In this document: one piece after another, positions 5,225 to 57,410 of the stretch
How positions within the stretch are numbered: position 1 is the first letter of the stretch
Layout of the letters: every line of letters begins with the position of its first letter
Assembly (NCBI GenBank): GCA_964643575.1
Contig: CAZXTD010000004.1
Coordinates: forward strand, 2,016-66,015
Reading direction: 5' to 3'
From: an uncultured Glaciecola sp.
GTDB taxonomy: Bacteria; Pseudomonadota; Gammaproteobacteria; Enterobacterales; Alteromonadaceae
Length of the DNA stretch: 64,000 bases
Notes under the pieces: model-generated
Told to the model about the DNA's origin: nothing
What the model saw: the letters and a program-made list of their open reading frames with translations, nothing else
Database searches by the model: none
Position numbers and translations under genes: made by a program

Positions 5225-6448
5225 TTGTGTTTAGTTAACGGCTGGCAAAAAAATAGTATTACCCTCTTAGTAATTACTGAGAGGGTAAGTGGTGTTTTGT
5301 TAGCGCCGATACTTGCGCTTGTATTGATGCTTTGCGCTACCTTTGCCCCGTTTGGTGTAGCCTACAGTCAAAGCGAAACAAAAGACCTAGCGAATATCCA
5401 ACAAATGATTGCGCAAACGCAAGCGCGCTTAGATAAAACCCTAGCCGATTCCGAACGTTTGCAGCAAGAATTGAAGCTTGCAGAGCTTAAAATTGCAGAA
5501 ACAGCCACTATTTTAAACAAGACCGACAAAGAGCTTGAGACCACTCGTGTGGAGCTTGAACGTTTAAACGCAGAAAAAACACGTATCAACACCGAAATCA
5601 AAAACCAGCAGTCTGCGTTAGCCAGTCAAATAAAAAGTGCCTATATGACAGGCGACTATGATTTTGCCAAGATGATATTTAATCAAAATGAAGCGGGTAA
5701 ATTTGAGCGAGTGCTCACCTATTATCAGTACTTAAATAAAGCCAGACAGTCGCAAATTGAAAACTTTAGAGGGTTAGTGCATGCGCTAGATACCGTGCAG
5801 GTTGAGCTCGATGCAGAAGAAGCCGAACTAGCAAATTTACTACAACAACAGTCAGCGCAGTCAAGAAAATTAGGTGACCAACAGCAGGCAAGGTTTGTTT
5901 CGCTCAGAAAACTAGAACAACAAATTAAAACAGACCAAGCAAGGGTATCGCAGCTTCAACAACAAGAAAATGACTTGGTTGCGGCTATTGAACAAGCCGA
6001 AATTGACGCCCGCCGAGCACGTGAGCAAGCTGAACAAGCCGACATTGAGTTGAACGGATTAAGCCAAATAAAAGGACAACTGAGAGTCCCAACGGCGGGC
6101 ACGATAGAAAGATTGTTTGGTAAACGCCGGCAAGGTCAGGTGCGCTGGAAAGGCATTGTAATAAACTCTAAAGCAGGCAGCACAGTAGCCTCGGTGGCTG
6201 ATGGTGTCATTTTATATGCTGACTGGCTGAAAGGATTTGGCTTGGTTGTTATTGTCGATCACGGAGAAGGCTACATGAGCGTGTACGGTCGCAATCAAGC
6301 CTTACTTAAAAATGTGGGCGACACAGTCACCGCCGGTGATGCTATTAGCTTAGTCGGCACAAGTGGCGGTCAAGCTCGAGCAAGCTTGTATTTCGAGATT
6401 AGGCATAAAGGCAAGGCGCTTAATCCGAGCGCTTGGTTGGTTCGATAG
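5225..6448 (+). CDS. envC: Murein hydrolase activator EnvC (coiled coil plus degenerate M23 domain); true start probably somewhat downstream
   Basis: Long coiled coil, then WKGIVI...YADWLKGFGLVVIVDHGEGYMSVYG...LYFEIR; follows gpmI. Confidence 0.9.
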   Translation: MCLVNGWQKNSITLLVITERVSGVLLAPILALVLMLCATFAPFGVAYSQSETKDLANIQQMIAQTQARLDKTLADSERLQQELKLAELKIAETATILNKTDKELETTRVELERLNAEKTRINTEIKNQQSALASQIKSAYMTGDYDFAKMIFNQNEAGKFERVLTYYQYLNKARQSQIENFRGLVHALDTVQVELDAEEAELANLLQQQSAQSRKLGDQQQARFVSLRKLEQQIKTDQARVSQLQQQENDLVAAIEQAEIDARRAREQAEQADIELNGLSQIKGQLRVPTAGTIERLFGKRRQGQVRWKGIVINSKAGSTVASVADGVILYADWLKGFGLVVIVDHGEGYMSVYGRNQALLKNVGDTVTAGDAISLVGTSGGQARASLYFEIRHKGKALNPSAWLVR

Positions 6449-6600
6449 TCTTTTTAGGTCTTAGAATGTTTTAAGGCCTTTGTGTGTCGACGTAGACGCA
6501 AATTAACATACAAAGGTATTATAAAACATACATTAGTTGATGCTGAGTACAGTATTATTAAACGATGTAAATTCATGGTGTTGCGCTGTCCAATCGAACA

Positions 6601-7194
6601 ATGAACAAACAAATTAATCAGCAAGCTCACAAGTTTCCCGTTGCCACTATTCAGTCGGGCTTTACGCTCATCGAACTCATTATTGTGATAGTCATACTCG
6701 GCATTCTTGCTGTGACAGCCGCGCCTCGTTTTATTGATATTCAATCAGATGCGCAAGCCTCTGCATTAAAAGGGGTGAGTGCAGCTTTGGCAAGTGCCAA
6801 TACCTTGGTTTACGCACAAGCGTTATTACAAGGGCAAAGCGAGCTCGAGAGTGGCTCGGTTGATGTGGGTAATAATGTAAACGTGGCAACTCGTTACGGA
6901 TACATCAGCTTTAATAGCAACGTGCACAGTGGTGCAAATGTGGCGCAAATAATCGATATTGATATTTGTCATCATTTAAATACTGATAATTCGTGTAATC
7001 CTGACGGCTCTACCCAATTTATTTATGATGTGGATACCATTAGCGGTGTCTCTATGGTGCGCATATTTTCAGGACGTCTCGCTGATAGCGACCGTGGGCC
7101 CGACAATGACCAAATTGAATGTCGAGTTGATTATCGCATGCCGGTTAATGCGGGTGATAACCCTGCCTACGAAGTTTTTGCTGACGAGTGCTAA
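6601..7194 (+). CDS. MSHA-type pilin-like protein with class III signal peptide
   Basis: SG|FTLIELIIVIVILGILAVTAAPRF prepilin cleavage/methylation motif, followed by IDIQSDAQASAL as in MshA/MshB-like pilins. Confidence 0.85.
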   Translation: MNKQINQQAHKFPVATIQSGFTLIELIIVIVILGILAVTAAPRFIDIQSDAQASALKGVSAALASANTLVYAQALLQGQSELESGSVDVGNNVNVATRYGYISFNSNVHSGANVAQIIDIDICHHLNTDNSCNPDGSTQFIYDVDTISGVSMVRIFSGRLADSDRGPDNDQIECRVDYRMPVNAGDNPAYEVFADEC

Positions 7195-7506
7195 ATTTGC
7201 GCTGATAAATACGCTTACCCGTTAATACCAACTTTCCTCTTTTGCTAGGGTTTGATTTGTCGCTTATTTCTATTTTGGGCGTCGTTGACCACCGTTACCA
7301 CAGCACTTGGCTCAATGCAGGTGTTTATTAAGCCTGAGAACGGAATTGCTCGCCCCTTTATCTATAAGTTCTTCCTTTTTACTATTTATATTTATGCCGC
7401 TAGCCAACAAAGCAACAGATGAAAAGTGACAAAAAGACTTTGACTGTTATCATCGCATTACAGTTGCTATTAATACTCTTCAGCTTGTACTGATGTTTAT
7501 TGCCTT

Positions 7507-8268
7507 ATGGCTGTTAGTATAATTACGTTAAGTAAATATGTGGCCGAGTATGCATTGATGAAAAAATTCTTACAAAGACTATTTATCCCTCAAATATTAC
7601 AAGCAGATAGAGCGCAAAGGGACACGTCAAAAACGCTTGCTAAAGCATATGAAGAGAGCTTAGTGACCAATTTATGGGAAGATACAGGTAGGCTTTATTT
7701 TTTACTCGATACTCTTAAGCTAAGTTTTGAAAGCGAAGTTGGCTTAGTTACTTATGAACGTTTAAGCGTAGAAATGGTAAAGGATATTTTAAACCAAATT
7801 AAAGAAGGCGAAAGCGCTGCCTTTCGGCAAAAAATTGTTGCTGAGCAAACCAGTGAAATACGTATATCGGTGTGCGGAATGACGTGGCAAACTTTGCACG
7901 GGCAAAGCCGAACGCGAGCCATTACCGAAGCTGCAGTGCTGCGAAGCACCACTCCTGATTTTTTAAACAGTCAAGCTTTGTTTAAGCACGCCGACCGCAT
8001 CATAGACCTAGACCCTAATATTCTAAGCTTACCTAACCAGGTAAATGTATTCACCTATGACCGGGTGAGCGTAACAGATTTTTTTAGTCAAATAAAAACT
8101 ATCAATACCCGTTTTGAGCCTGAAAATAAGGCCAGTATCAACTTAAATAGAGAAAATTATTTGGCGCCTTTTAGTGATAATGAGCAAAAGACAATAGACA
8201 CTTTAGAGCAAGGTCGCTCACTTAGCCAAAAAGCTTATAAGCCGCTAACATCAACACCAAAAGTATGA
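7507..8268 (+). CDS. Hypothetical protein, no recognisable domain (alternative start 7558)
   Basis: 253-aa ORF filling the gap between genes; overlaps the 3' end of the convergent transporter gene by 47 bp. Confidence 0.65.
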   Translation: MAVSIITLSKYVAEYALMKKFLQRLFIPQILQADRAQRDTSKTLAKAYEESLVTNLWEDTGRLYFLLDTLKLSFESEVGLVTYERLSVEMVKDILNQIKEGESAAFRQKIVAEQTSEIRISVCGMTWQTLHGQSRTRAITEAAVLRSTTPDFLNSQALFKHADRIIDLDPNILSLPNQVNVFTYDRVSVTDFFSQIKTINTRFEPENKASINLNRENYLAPFSDNEQKTIDTLEQGRSLSQKAYKPLTSTPKV

Positions 8269-9409
8269 CTAAACCTCCTGCGATGTTTGCGAGTTTGCTG
8301 TTGGCGTAATTTCCCATAAGATCCGGCCGGTTACATACCCAAACCAATAAAATAGCAGATATCGGTAAGAGCAAAGCATTAGAGGTTTGCGCTAAAATGA
8401 TCAGTGCCAGAGGTTTAAGCCCTAAGCTAGCCGCAAAGGTACCGATAGCCACAATACTAATTGCCGTTGCTTTAAAACGAAGATCTTTAAGTGTGTTGCC
8501 CCAGCCAAATAAACCACTAATGGCAAAAGCAGCAGCTAATGGCGCGGTGAGCGCACTTGTTAAGCCTGCTGCAAATAAACCTATACCAAAAAAGAGTGCT
8601 GCGTTGTCACCTAGCAATGGCGCAAGTTGACTAGCAATATTTGATTTATCCACACTAATTTGTGTCGCAAAAAAGGCGGTAACCGAGCTCGAAAGTATCG
8701 CGAAGGTGACTAAGCCGCCCATGCCAATGCTAATAGCGAGCTCTTTGTTCTGCTGTGACACGCTGCCAATATCTTTATTGTTTTGTTTATCTTGTGCGCT
8801 TAAACCGGCGTGTAAAAATAAATTATAAGGAACAATAGTCGTGCCAACAATTGCCAAGGCAAGCGCGGGTGTGGCAAGGGAAGTATCTGAAAATGTTAAG
8901 CCTTTAGCGAGTAAGTCAGTATTAATGCCCACAACAAACATTAAAGAGATAAAGACAATACTCATCAGCACAACCAAGCCAACCAAGCACTTTTCTACAA
9001 TGCTGTAATGCCCAGTTAGCAATAGCAACGCTGCAATAACACCAAGCGTGAGTGCCCACGTTTGAATACTCGCACCAAAACTCGCGCTCAAACCTAAAGC
9101 CGCCCCGGTGATATTGCCGCCTTCATAAGCTGCGTTGCCAATACCGATTGCTGCAATGACTAAAGCACCTATGAGAATACGGGCCGCTTTGCTTTGCAGA
9201 CTTTGCATAATTGCTTGTGATAAACCGAGGCCCGATACGCTTCCTAAACGAGACGCCATTTCTTGCAGTGTATAAGTTGCTAATATCGCAAATGCAAGTA
9301 ACCAGACCAAGGTGAAACCAGTTTGACCACCCACTACTGTAGCCGTTGTCACTGTGCCGGGCCCAATAAACGCTGCGGTGATGATCAGTCCTTTAATTCC
9401 TGCTCGCAT
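8222..9409 (-). CDS. NRAMP-family (SLC11-like) transporter with non-canonical motif
   Basis: About 11 TM helices; AAFIGPGT and GTTIVPYNLFLHA align with NRAMP TM1 and TM6. Confidence 0.85.
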   Translation of the reverse strand: MRAGIKGLIITAAFIGPGTVTTATVVGGQTGFTLVWLLAFAILATYTLQEMASRLGSVSGLGLSQAIMQSLQSKAARILIGALVIAAIGIGNAAYEGGNITGAALGLSASFGASIQTWALTLGVIAALLLLTGHYSIVEKCLVGLVVLMSIVFISLMFVVGINTDLLAKGLTFSDTSLATPALALAIVGTTIVPYNLFLHAGLSAQDKQNNKDIGSVSQQNKELAISIGMGGLVTFAILSSSVTAFFATQISVDKSNIASQLAPLLGDNAALFFGIGLFAAGLTSALTAPLAAAFAISGLFGWGNTLKDLRFKATAISIVAIGTFAASLGLKPLALIILAQTSNALLLPISAILLVWVCNRPDLMGNYANSKLANIAGGLVILLVLMLAAYKLFG

Positions 9410-53500: not shown

Positions 53501-53677
53501 AAAATACCGAGTTTGTGTGCGAGTATCACTACTACACCCTATAGTAACCGTGTTGAGTATAAAACTCGAAAAAATCTAGTTTTTTCTTAATTTAAGTTGT
53601 TTTTGGTCGTCAGTTCTTTACTGCGTTTCTTTTTCCTTACTTTCAAAAAAAATTTTAAGTTTTAAATTTCGCGCAAA

Positions 53678-53691
53678 TGTAAGCGGTTACA
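53678..53691. promoter_or_regulatory. LacI-family operator-like palindrome
   Basis: TGTAAGCGGTTACA, near-palindrome with a central CG, upstream of the PEP-CTERM/GH16 pair. Confidence 0.65.
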
Positions 53692-53835
53692 CGCCTGCAG
53701 CTGTGCGGCCAAAAAATTTTGAAAATGAGATGTGTTTTTAATGTTGCATAATTGTAAATTGGAATTTAGATTAATAGATTATTCGATAAATGCCTTGCTA
53801 AAAAAAGGCTAAAAAATACACATACGGAGAAAAAA

Positions 53836-54528
53836 ATGAAACGTTTATTAGCTGTCTTTTGCTTGAGTCTAGGACTCATAAGCACAAACGCTTACGCTGC
53901 TGCTATTGTTAATGGGGACTTTGCTACCTGTGACCTGACGGGGTGGGAAACAGCAGATGATTTTGGCGATGCCAATTTGGATGATTTTAGTGTAAATGGG
54001 CTTGCACCAGACTGTGCGGCGACAATAACAATAGATGACGCCAACTCTATGGCAATTTCAAACTCACTTTTATCAGAACTTGATCTCAGCGTTGCTGCTG
54101 GCAATTCCCTAGACATAAGGTTTGATTTTTCTGTTGGCAGCCTTTTAAGCGATATTCTGACAGAGGGGGGAGCGGGTTTCAGTATGTTTTTCATCAATGA
54201 AAATATTATGGGGTCCCAATTTGACCACACAGGACAACTAGGAGAAATCTTTAATCAAGAAATTCTAGGAGCAGAGAGTTTTCTTCAAACTTTTACGATA
54301 GATGAAAGTTTTTATAACACCAGCGGTTGGACTTTAGAAATTCAACTTGGGTCAAGCTTTCGTTTTGAAGAATCCTCTTCATTGACGTTAAATTCTGTTT
54401 CCTTACTCGAACGTTCTATTGACGTATCTGCACCAGCAAGCTTTTCATTAGTTTTCTTGAGTTTCTTGGCAATAAGTTTGTATTCGCGTAACTCAAAAAG
54501 ACATTGCACAAAACAAGTGAAAGCATAA
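53836..54528 (+). CDS. PEP-CTERM-like (exosortase-target) exported protein
   Basis: Signal peptide, IVNGDF..CDLTGW start, C-terminal VSAPAS plus TM helix plus basic tail (RNSKR). Confidence 0.75.
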   Translation: MKRLLAVFCLSLGLISTNAYAAAIVNGDFATCDLTGWETADDFGDANLDDFSVNGLAPDCAATITIDDANSMAISNSLLSELDLSVAAGNSLDIRFDFSVGSLLSDILTEGGAGFSMFFINENIMGSQFDHTGQLGEIFNQEILGAESFLQTFTIDESFYNTSGWTLEIQLGSSFRFEESSSLTLNSVSLLERSIDVSAPASFSLVFLSFLAISLYSRNSKRHCTKQVKA

Positions 54529-54542
54529 AAGGAAACCTAACC

Positions 54543-57410
54543 ATGTTGAAATTTACCAAATCACTTATTGCGTCTGTTGTTGTATTTACAGCTGCAACTC
54601 AAATGCCTGTTATTGCCGAGTGGGAAAATATTGATAATGTTGATCTTAATGCAGGGCGGCAAGTTTTTGACCGAACAAATAGGCAATTTAACAGCACAGT
54701 CAGCATTAAAAATAATAGTGGTGAAGACTTTATAGGTCCTTTGCGATTGCTTGTGAGTGACAGCAGTATGGTCCTTGCGAACCCAGACGGTAGCAACGAG
54801 GAAGGCGTCCCATACGTTGTTATCCCAGAGGGGCTCGGTGCTGGCGAGAGCGCCAGGCTACAACTAAGTTTTGAGCTACAAAGGGCTCGACTTCGTTTTA
54901 ATTTAGCACTACAGCAAGAAGCCGAAGAAGAATCTGATTGGGAGCTTGTATGGAGCGACGAATTTGACGGTGACCAAGTTGACGAAACAAAGTGGTCGTT
55001 TGAAGAGAACTGCTGGGGTGGTGGTAACAACGAACAGCAATGCTATACCAACCGGCTCGACAACTCGGTAGTTGCAGATGGTTTATTAACCATTATCGCC
55101 AAACGAGAGGATTTTACCGGGCCAAATAATCCAAATGGCGATACAAATAATTTGGCAACACTGCCCTATACCTCGGCACGCTTGCGCACAATAAACAAAG
55201 GTGATTGGACCTATGGGCGCTTTGAAATTAGCGCGAAAATGCCGCAAGGGCAGGGCACTTGGCCTGCTATATGGATGCTACCGACTGACTATGTGTACGG
55301 CGGATGGGCAGCTTCGGGCGAAATTGACATTATGGAAGCAGTTAATCTAAAAGCACAAAGTGACGCTAGTGGTGCGCAAGAAGGGGATGAAGAAAACAGG
55401 ATTCACGGTACTTTGCATTATGGGCGCTCTTGGCCAGGCAATGTGGCATCAGGTACTGACTTTAGTTTGCCAAATGGCATTAACCCTGCAGACGGCTTTC
55501 ACGAATATGCAATAGAGTGGGAAGACGGCGAAATACGTTGGTATATAGATGATATTCATTACGCAACGCAAACCTCAGACGGTTGGTATGCTCAATACGT
55601 AGATGAGGATGGCGTGTTACGCGATGCTGAGGGCTCAGCGCCATTTAATGAACGTTTCCACATGCTAATAAATCTTGCTGTAGGAGGCAATTGGGCTGCA
55701 AATGTAAACGAAACAGGTATCGATGAATCGGTTTTTCCACAAACCATGCAAGTTGATTACGTGCGCGTTTACGAATGTTCGATTAATCCATCAAACGGGC
55801 AAGGTTGCGCTACGATTGGTGAAAACCCTGAATTTGTGCCAGGCAACACGCCGCCAGTGTTACAAGACCCTGATTCAGATATTGGCGCAGGTCCAGTTTT
55901 TGACATATTCATTGACGATTTAAGCGATGGATTAGGTTTTGATGGCTTTAATCCCGATGGAACAGTCGTTTACAACGTGACATCAGAAGATGGCAGAGGT
56001 AACGTTATTTCACTGTCGCAAAGCGGTAATGTGGGTAACTTCTTTGTGAACGGTAGCCCGGGTATGGATTTGAGTCATTTTGCTGAATACGGCGAAATTT
56101 CGTTTGATATTAAAGTTGTCGAGAATAATAGCGACGCAACAGCCTTAATTAAAATGGACAGCGGTTGGCCCTCAGTGAGCGATATCCGCATCGAATTGCC
56201 AAGTGTTGGCGAATGGCAAACTGTGACGCTAAAAGTGGCTGATATTCTTGCAAACAGCAACACTTTTGCTCCCGGCAATTTTGCCGATGTTGCTCAAATC
56301 GTTAATCCATTCGTGTTTGAGCCTAGCGGGCCAGTTGAATTGATGCTCGATAACATCAAGTATCAATATAATCTAGCAGGCATTAATGAAGTTGTGGTGT
56401 TTGACGAGTTTGACCACCCTCCTTATACCTTAGGGCAGTTTGTTGCAAATGGCAGCGTCACCATGGAGCAAATCGACAGTGGTGATAGCGCGCAAGGCCA
56501 AGTCAAAGAGCTTACCTTTAATACCAACGAGTCGGTTGTATTCTTTCAAACACAAGTTGATGGCACGGGCGCAACGCTTAAGCTGGATATGACGCATTTA
56601 GACACGTTAGAGTTTGATTTATACCTTGTTGAAGACCCTCGAGATTTACGTAATTTTACCATTAAAATGGATTGCGGCTTTCCTTGCGGAACAGGCGATG
56701 TGCCAATTGAAGCACCACCGGTTGGTGTATGGACAAGTTACTCAATTCCTTTAGCTGATTTAGTGAGTCATCCGGGCTCTAATTTAGACCTTGCTAGCGT
56801 TGATACACCTTTGGTGATATTCCCAAGCTGGGGTAATCAGCAGGGCGTAGTGATGCAAGTGGATAACGTACGTGTAGTTGGCGACGGTGACGACAACAAC
56901 AATGTACCCATTGAAGTAGTGGTAGCAGAGGCAACCACTATTTTTGATGATGACTTAGCAAGTGAGTGGTCTTTCTTTGACTGTTGTGGCAACGCCGCGG
57001 TTAGCTTTGATACGGATGGACAAAGAGGCCAAGTCATTAAGGTCGACTTTTTTGGTCCATCAGGCACTGTGTCGGGTTTACAGGCAAGCTTACCACATAA
57101 CCTAAATGCAGTAAGCCAAGGCACTATTAGCTTTGATTTAAAACTTGTATCGCCATCGAACTTTGCAAATGCAGCTTATTTGGTTAAGTTTGAAGGCAGT
57201 GATGGCTCATTTTATGAGCGTGAGCTTAGCGCCAGTCTAGAAGGTATGCAACCTGAGCTAGGCCAGTGGCAGACCTACACGTTCAACATTGCAGACCTTG
57301 CTGCGGGTGGTTTAAATATAGAAAAGCTGCGTTTGATTATGGCCTTTCCAAGTTGGATGAATGCGCAAGGCGCAATTTATCAGCTTGATAATGTCGTTAT
57401 TACGCCATAG
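54543..57410 (+). CDS. Secreted multi-modular GH16 beta-1,3-glucanase (laminarinase-like)
   Basis: Signal peptide, WELVWSDEF, WPAIWMLP, catalytic EIDIME, NLAVGGNW; an N-terminal unknown module and three C-terminal beta-sandwich repeats. Confidence 0.92.
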   Translation: MLKFTKSLIASVVVFTAATQMPVIAEWENIDNVDLNAGRQVFDRTNRQFNSTVSIKNNSGEDFIGPLRLLVSDSSMVLANPDGSNEEGVPYVVIPEGLGAGESARLQLSFELQRARLRFNLALQQEAEEESDWELVWSDEFDGDQVDETKWSFEENCWGGGNNEQQCYTNRLDNSVVADGLLTIIAKREDFTGPNNPNGDTNNLATLPYTSARLRTINKGDWTYGRFEISAKMPQGQGTWPAIWMLPTDYVYGGWAASGEIDIMEAVNLKAQSDASGAQEGDEENRIHGTLHYGRSWPGNVASGTDFSLPNGINPADGFHEYAIEWEDGEIRWYIDDIHYATQTSDGWYAQYVDEDGVLRDAEGSAPFNERFHMLINLAVGGNWAANVNETGIDESVFPQTMQVDYVRVYECSINPSNGQGCATIGENPEFVPGNTPPVLQDPDSDIGAGPVFDIFIDDLSDGLGFDGFNPDGTVVYNVTSEDGRGNVISLSQSGNVGNFFVNGSPGMDLSHFAEYGEISFDIKVVENNSDATALIKMDSGWPSVSDIRIELPSVGEWQTVTLKVADILANSNTFAPGNFADVAQIVNPFVFEPSGPVELMLDNIKYQYNLAGINEVVVFDEFDHPPYTLGQFVANGSVTMEQIDSGDSAQGQVKELTFNTNESVVFFQTQVDGTGATLKLDMTHLDTLEFDLYLVEDPRDLRNFTIKMDCGFPCGTGDVPIEAPPVGVWTSYSIPLADLVSHPGSNLDLASVDTPLVIFPSWGNQQGVVMQVDNVRVVGDGDDNNNVPIEVVVAEATTIFDDDLASEWSFFDCCGNAAVSFDTDGQRGQVIKVDFFGPSGTVSGLQASLPHNLNAVSQGTISFDLKLVSPSNFANAAYLVKFEGSDGSFYERELSASLEGMQPELGQWQTYTFNIADLAAGGLNIEKLRLIMAFPSWMNAQGAIYQLDNVVITP

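Follow-up and report, generated by a model that had tools for sequence, protein, structure and literature searches.

Two adjacent genes in a 64,000 nucleotide stretch of DNA from an uncultured Glaciecola sp. (contig CAZXTD010000004.1; this whole stretch is called the window below) may be one copy of a conserved and portable two-component cassette for tethering secreted enzymes. Each enzyme would be held by a receptor of its own, sorted by an exosortase, in a one-to-one pairing. We put the probability of this reading at about 0.5. The pair lies on the + strand of this Glaciecola-like Alteromonadaceae window and consists of a small gene of 230 amino acids (aa) followed by the gene for a laminarinase of glycoside hydrolase (GH) family 16. 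The small protein ends in a PEP-CTERM-type sorting signal, and the mature laminarinase begins with an unnamed terminal module of 105 aa. The observations that point to tethering are the adjacency of the two genes, a link that is specific to the module, the independence of the link from module position, movement of the pair as a block, co-diversification of the partners, the lack of a sorting tail on the module carriers, co-occurrence with exosortase and the tight spacing of the genes. The pair represents two undescribed families, found in neither Pfam nor NCBIfam. A literature search returned no description of the pairing; the coverage of that search was incomplete, and an earlier description elsewhere is possible.

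The neighbourhood census compared the coordinates of hits to profiles of the module and of the small protein across 401 Alteromonadaceae genomes. The first three relatives on long contigs were Alteromonas pelagimontana, a Paraglaciecola and a metagenome contig. All three have the small gene immediately upstream of a large GH16 gene with the same N-terminal module, and the genes flanking the pair are wholly different among them. A small-family gene ends 57-196 bp upstream of the module, on the same strand, for 59 of the 64 strong module hits. This distance corresponds to the signal peptide plus a short spacer. Divergent module hits, mostly in GH43 enzymes, have a PEP-CTERM-tailed open reading frame (ORF) of ~215 aa directly upstream on the same strand in 30/32 cases; the ORFs upstream of these weaker hits are a more divergent branch of the small-protein family. 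The preliminary description of this locus had suggested building a hidden Markov model (HMM) of the module and counting how often its carriers neighbour this PEP-CTERM family. That count came out clearly in favour of an association: a PEP-CTERM small gene is directly upstream in 89/96 module genes (93%; binomial P for chance adjacency ~1e-188). Counting in reverse from the small-family hits (E<1e-8), the module is directly downstream in 60 of 64, and in a 61st the downstream protein carries it C-terminally. The remaining three are two contig-end fragments and one orphan (G163). Full-length small genes found in GTDB genomes have a module gene downstream of them in 17/17 cases. The gene order is fixed and the spacing is tight, 14 bp in the window and overlapping in A. 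pelagimontana. Up to 3-4 separate cassettes occur per genome.

The pairing is tied to the module and not to the enzyme. The module's passengers belong to a dozen or more unrelated classes, including GH16, GH10, GH13 pullulanase, GH39-like and GH43 enzymes, a pectate-lyase-fold protein, an S8 peptidase, LamG/RCC1 giants, Rhs/teneurin YD proteins and PKD/beta-propeller proteins. The preliminary description had suggested that similar modules occur on other enzymes beside PEP-CTERM genes, and this is correct: the carriers include GH10, GH43 and S8 peptidase proteins, pullulanase, and Rhs and PKD proteins. One example from outside Alteromonadaceae is a Thiodictyon metagenome-assembled genome (L060:434-6998), where the small gene stands ahead of a ~1940-aa Rhs/teneurin-like YD-shell protein with an N-terminal module, the ORF running off the contig end. 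The pair is confined neither to Alteromonadaceae nor, because the Thiodictyon passenger is an Rhs/YD protein, to carbohydrate-active enzymes. The position of the module, N-terminal or C-terminal, does not matter for the pairing. In Glaciecola siphonariae, a member of the same genus, the neighbour is a 1459-aa protein with Ig-like repeats and no GH16 domain, and the module is at its extreme C-terminus, residues 1353-1459 (L061:6678-11054), with the small gene upstream as elsewhere. Four further loci with a C-terminal module, from other organisms, each have a gene for a PEP-CTERM jelly roll a short way upstream.

The small gene, signal peptide and module move as a block that is re-used on new enzymes, because the flanks differ between genomes and the tree of the small protein shows passenger switches. 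The tree clusters by passenger class (20 changes vs 43.7 when shuffled). Supported switches are GH10 nested in a GH16 clade, a sister pair of S8 and Rhs, and LamG and Ig proteins nested in a GH16 clade. Chance synteny among orthologues was considered and rejected, given that the flanks differ, that passengers switch, that the module swaps between N- and C-terminal positions and that the pair occurs outside Alteromonadaceae. Distances between small proteins and distances between modules are correlated (Mantel r=0.81, 70 pairs, 0/2000 permutations as high), which is co-diversification, a signal that co-inheritance and physical co-evolution give alike.

The features of the pair, in window coordinates, are as follows.

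53501..53835, + strand: upstream intergenic region, AT-rich, presumed promoter region (from sequence)
53836..54528, + strand: small partner gene, 230 aa, with signal peptide, jelly roll resembling a carbohydrate-binding module (CBM) and PEP-CTERM-type tail (from the ORF, AlphaFold2 and Foldseek)
53836..53898, + strand: Sec signal peptide of the small protein, predicted cleavage after AYA, residue 21 (from sequence; position from the A-x-A rule)
54424..54525, + strand: C-terminal sorting signal of the small protein, V-S-A-P-A-S, hydrophobic helix and SRNSKRH, residues 197-230 (from the family motif)
54529..54542, + strand: 14-nt spacer AAGGAAACCTAACC with the ribosome-binding site AAGGAAA (from sequence)
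54543..57410, + strand: GH16 laminarinase gene, 955 aa, ATG at 54543 (from the ORF, Pfam and a PDB profile match)
54543..54617, + strand: signal peptide of the enzyme, 25 aa, signal peptidase I (SPase I) type, no lipobox (from sequence)
54618..54932, + strand: unnamed terminal module, 105 aa, 7-strand beta-sandwich, proposed docking element, starting at the mature N-terminus (E-W…) (from AlphaFold2)
54936..55775, + strand: GH16 catalytic domain, residues 132-411, with EIDIME at 55320-55337 (from Pfam and the 3iln match)
55776..57407, + strand: C-terminal beta-sandwich region of the enzyme, galactose-binding-like (CBM-like) (from PF18559 Exop_C)

The elements named in the preliminary description were all confirmed at their positions. 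The small PEP-CTERM-like protein had been described as ending 14 bp before the GH16 start, and this agrees with the stop codon TAA at 54526-54528 and the ATG at 54543. The 14-nt spacer carries a ribosome-binding site. The arrangement of the two genes looks like an operon, because there is no terminator between them. The ATG at 54543 is the credible start of the enzyme because the ribosome-binding site and a proper signal peptide are found there. A 968-aa ORF from a TTG at 54504, inside the small gene, was discarded as an upstream extension of the GH16 frame and not a real product. Promoter and terminator scans around the pair gave nothing better than shuffled sequence. The single weak sigma-70-like match upstream (53725-53752, 9/12 consensus) is a candidate only, and shuffles score as well.

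The enzyme fits a GH16 laminarinase type by fold match and catalytic motif, and its activity is predicted on that basis. PF00722 matches at 2.7e-16, the closest solved structures to the catalytic domain are laminarinases (3iln, 4e-44, residues 132-411), and the motif EIDIME (E-x-D-x-x-E) is at residue 260. The C-terminal region has two stretches of PF18559 Exop_C, the best at 633-763. The signal sequence ends in …QMPVIA|EW with no lipobox Cys, and the C-terminus (…YQLDNVVITP) has neither a transmembrane (TM) segment nor a sorting motif. An exported enzyme with no lipobox or sorting signal of its own, and with a beta-rich module of ~100 aa before the catalytic domain, is what the preliminary description reported. 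Both points hold: the signal peptide has an SPase I site and no Cys, there is no TM tail, and the module, at residues 26-130, is predicted to be a 7-strand sandwich with a pLDDT (AlphaFold2 confidence score) of 94.6.

No Pfam or NCBIfam model matches enzyme residues 26-130. The AlphaFold2 model of the module is a confident beta-sandwich (pLDDT 94.6, pTM 0.82), and a Foldseek search with it found no specific relative, only generic sandwiches of the Ig-like (of glycosidases) or CBM2-like type at E>=5e-3. A profile of the module against PDB sequences gave only noise. Used by itself as a query against 1.84 billion representative proteins, the module returned 162 clusters (50% identity) at E<=1e-3. 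Module positions were counted in 149 of the best 150 module representatives, those re-detected by the module HMM. The module follows the signal peptide in 107/149 and is at the extreme C-terminus in 34/149, so that it is terminal in 141/149 overall. A PEP-CTERM tail of their own was found in 0/150 module-bearing representatives. In the Alteromonadaceae loci that were inspected, the start of the module is the predicted signal-peptidase site in 28/29, a Trp is near-invariant at mature position 2, and the inspected signal peptides of module carriers have no lipobox.

The exact start of the module at the mature N-terminus, with its near-invariant Trp at position 2 in 28/29 loci of the N-terminal type, could be taken as a sign of covalent joining. 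The exosortase would then act as a transpeptidase and ligate the cleaved C-terminus of the small protein to the module, for example at a free N-terminal amine. Sortase-type enzymes catalyse transpeptidation. We consider this very improbable. At the extreme C-terminus, where the module is found in 34/149 representatives, there is no free amine; we know of no precedent for ligation by an exosortase; and a simple gene fusion would do the same. A Rosetta-stone search of the 150 module-bearing representatives returned one candidate, P0111, a metagenome protein of 393 aa. It contains the complete small protein including the PEP-CTERM tail, and then the next signal peptide and module, in one polypeptide. 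We rejected P0111 as a true domain fusion, as the retention of the whole tail and a second signal peptide indicates in-frame read-through, and this counts against covalent joining as well. P0111 would be due either to a lost stop codon or to a sequencing or gene-calling artefact.

The small protein begins with an SPase I signal peptide, MKRLLAVFCLSLGLISTNAYA|A, and ends with IDVSAPASFSLVFLSFLAISLYSRNSKRHCTKQVKA. Its body opens with a NGDFATCDLTGW motif, typical of CBM-like jelly rolls. The tail is made up of SFSLVFLSFLAISLY followed by SRNSKRH, the last 7 residues ahead of the stop. The protein thus has the PEP-CTERM architecture: an N-terminal signal peptide and, at the extreme C-terminus, the motif, a TM helix and a basic cluster. 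The Pro-Glu-Pro motif is near-invariant in PEP-CTERM proteins (Haft et al., 2006; PMC1569441). The window protein departs from it with V-S-A-P, in which Glu is replaced by Ala, and neither PF07589 nor TIGR02595 matches it even at E<=1. The label 'PEP-CTERM-like', given earlier on the sequence alone, is upheld by homology in place of a match of its own: PF07589 is found in 5/8 homologues (best 1.7e-5) and TIGR02595 in 4/8, and homologue tails end in VSEPA or VPEPA. Across 70 family members the tail motif is V[PS][EA]P (PEP 22, SAP 9, SEP 7, PAP 6, and others). Treating the window tail as a 'SAP' variant of the PEP-CTERM class is justified by homology and predicted architecture.

A Pfam and NCBIfam scan of the window small protein gave no family match of its own. 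AlphaFold2 models the protein as a beta jelly roll with moderate confidence (pLDDT 65), and the top PDB matches of this pLDDT 65 model in Foldseek are CBM27, CBM4 and CBM16 (E ~5e-6, TM-scores 0.4-0.55). No Pfam CBM family matches the window protein or the 8 homologues, and one distant relative matches PF02018 CBM_4_9. The protein was also considered as a copy of the enzyme's own CBM-like domains; this was rejected (hhalign probability 0.1). These resemblances are relevant to a reading in which the two proteins co-operate without contact. The small protein would be a surface glycan binder (CBM-like, in the style of SusE/F), the module would stick the enzyme independently to exopolysaccharide, lipopolysaccharide (LPS) or substrate, and the two would be co-encoded only because both serve polymer degradation close to the surface. 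The fold matches to CBM27, CBM4 and CBM16, the distant relative with PF02018, and the CBM2 and glycosidase Ig-like domains among the module's weak fold matches all speak for it. On the other side, the S8 peptidase, Rhs/YD and PKD/beta-propeller partners have no common glycan substrate, the constant neighbour of the small gene is the module (93% adjacency) and the two co-diversify, and by hhalign the small protein does not resemble the enzyme's CBM-like domains. We regard co-operation without contact as improbable.

Co-occurrence points to a dependence of the cassette on exosortase: PF09721 is present in 43/43 of the other cassette genomes tested, vs 35/52 of the genomes without a cassette (Fisher P=9e-6). 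The genome of the window carries several tails of this type that are more alike within the species than between species: ~10 ORFs end in [VA]SAP[AGS], a TM helix and a basic cluster (examples are C16:13434-14279, C68:18921-19424, C154:8954-9829, C156:6800-7468, C274:3181-3621 and C198:4576-5214). The 'SAP' variant, with Ala in place of the supposedly invariant Glu, is thus genome-wide. As a separate observation, the exosortase matches in Alteromonadaceae fall into two score classes, ~210-250 and ~140-170 bits, which suggests two exosortase subtypes. No simple relation was seen between the score class and the tail motif (PEP vs SAP or PAP).

The exosortase association also bears on the main rival, which makes the small protein an adaptor, tethered to the membrane, for folding or secretion. 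From its anchorage in the inner membrane it would bind the module transiently in the periplasm and hold the enzyme, fold it or hand it to the type II secretion system, and the enzyme would be released free. Models for such a role are the Lif foldase, which serves lipase, and the pilotin, which serves its partner. An adaptor fits the finding that each enzyme has a small gene to itself, upstream in every case and at a short distance, and that a genome carries up to 3-4 separate cassettes and no single shared anchor. It also fits the survival of the module in a few genomes that have no partner, and the place of one pair of the C-terminal type beside a gspC-D-E-F operon. A plain membrane anchor needs neither the full PEP-CTERM architecture, which is kept, nor the exosortase found in 43/43 cassette genomes. 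There is no obvious chaperone job for a small module that is predicted to fold alone (pLDDT 94.6), and the module works at either terminus. On balance we think the adaptor unlikely. The pair beside the operon (L121:1-5042 and 6001-8799) is divergent from type II secretion genes for a PDZ/GspC-like protein, the GspD secretin, GspE and GspF. As a single case, this neighbourhood is a hint on the export route.

Tethering by a sorted receptor would proceed as follows. Both products, as read from their sequences, are exported by Sec. Following the PEP-CTERM/exosortase paradigm, the tail would hold the small protein in the inner membrane until exosortase cleaves near V-S-A-P, and by the same paradigm the protein would then be handed on, at the cell surface, to an acceptor in the envelope or the exopolysaccharide. 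As the comparative genomics suggests, the laminarinase would bind the jelly roll without a covalent bond, through the ~100-aa beta-sandwich at its mature N-terminus, and each enzyme would have one cognate receptor. The enzyme may cross the outer membrane by type II secretion, which is our guess. The anchorless laminarinase would thereby be kept on the cell or slime layer, and laminarin fragments would stay near the cell's transporters.

Several points weigh against tethering. Synteny and co-diversification, including the correlation given above, are equally expected from plain co-inheritance of a cassette. A generic anchor needs no gene per enzyme, and the 1:1 pattern is just as compatible with a dedicated chaperone. 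Confidence in the predicted structure of the small protein is only moderate (pLDDT 65). For PEP-CTERM proteins in general, the surface location and the acceptor are poorly established. Seven module genes (L083, L118, L119, L084, L085, L093 and L097) have no small partner or remnant of one, and three of these (L083, L118 and L119) are in the Paraglaciecola genomes G321, G335 and G383, which have zero small-family hits genome-wide. The module can persist without its partner, because these three orphan genomes have no small-family match. Searches with PF09721 and TIGR04178 found no exosortase in the window's own genome assembly (91% complete, 300 contigs), and the exosortase/exopolysaccharide loci of two congeners have no counterpart there. 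An assembly gap would be the simplest explanation for the missing exosortase. Separately, the flanks of L085 match the A. pelagimontana locus, and the small gene has apparently been cleanly deleted.

The preliminary description proposed a surface scaffold that captures the enzyme in a cohesin-dockerin-like way. A genomic association, very strong and specific to the module, is borne out. The term scaffold is not, as the small protein has a single domain and would be a 1:1 adaptor, and neither part is a cohesin or a dockerin; the Pfam cohesin and dockerin models match neither window protein and none of the small-protein homologues. Cohesin-dockerin anchoring would still be the closest functional analogue. 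Like the single-cohesin anchors of the OlpA and OlpC type in Acetivibrio thermocellus, the pair has a small anchored receptor and a short terminal docking module common to many secreted enzymes, and the proposed outcome is likewise display of the enzyme near the cell. The parts are different. The module is an all-beta 7-strand sandwich and not a duplicated EF-hand Ca-binding segment, and the best fold matches of the small protein are CBM27, CBM4 and CBM16, not cohesin. The receptor has one domain and is encoded 1:1 beside each enzyme, unlike a many-site scaffoldin. In contrast to cellulosome hosts, the hosts are diderm Gammaproteobacteria, and anchoring would be through PEP-CTERM/exosortase and not through S-layer homology domains or sortase.

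Two other surface systems share features with the pair. PulA of Klebsiella is a type II secreted surface lipoprotein pullulanase that is lipid-anchored at its N-terminus. The likeness is in a secreted polysaccharide hydrolase held at the surface via its N-terminus, and pullulanases are among the passengers here, but the anchor would be contact with a separate sorted protein and not an acylated Cys. The C-terminal domain (CTD) that belongs to type IX secretion (T9SS) in Bacteroidota is also an Ig-like beta-sandwich of ~100 aa that is terminal on many unrelated secreted enzymes and sets their surface attachment. It belongs to another phylum and machinery, whereas the module is mostly N-terminal and has a small protein dedicated to it as its partner in place of a shared sortase/LPS pathway. 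No Pfam or NCBIfam T9SS CTD model matches residues 26-130, and the hosts are Gammaproteobacteria. The described PEP-CTERM/exosortase system itself (EpsH; Haft et al., 2006; PMC1569441) has the same tripartite tail at the extreme C-terminus, many species-specific tails per genome, and co-occurrence with exosortase, here seen in the relatives. The pair differs in the change of Glu to Ala (VSAP), in that both HMMs missed the window protein and in that the window assembly has no exosortase. The described system also has no obligate partnership with a module on a neighbouring enzyme that lacks a tail.

How free-living marine Gammaproteobacteria retain large secreted polysaccharide hydrolases near the cell ('selfish' vs 'sharing' uptake) is an open question in ocean carbon turnover. 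To our knowledge, they have neither the T9SS nor the Sus-like lipoprotein systems of Bacteroidota. What PEP-CTERM proteins do has likewise stayed largely obscure in the two decades since they were described. Both questions gain a concrete handle from a defined pair, in which one partner is a small sorted putative receptor and the other a compact module, predicted with confidence to fold, that is carried by laminarinases, xylanases, pullulanases, GH43 enzymes and peptidases. We tentatively suggest, at a little less than even odds, that the cassette is a case of a general 'plug-and-socket' system by which diderm bacteria display proteins with the help of exosortase, and in which each plug is specific for its co-encoded socket. 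The portable unit, made up of the PEP-CTERM jelly-roll gene as socket, a signal peptide and the ~100-aa beta-sandwich as plug, would have been grafted repeatedly onto glycosidases, peptidases, adhesin-like and Rhs/YD proteins. It reaches well beyond Alteromonadaceae, the 162 clusters of the module including N- and C-terminal variants. If so, and we hold this just as tentatively, it would do in Gram-negative bacteria what cohesin-dockerin does, with folds unrelated to it. If the binding is true, the pair would define two new protein families, and Gram-negative hosts could be given an orthogonal pair of tag and receptor for surface display.

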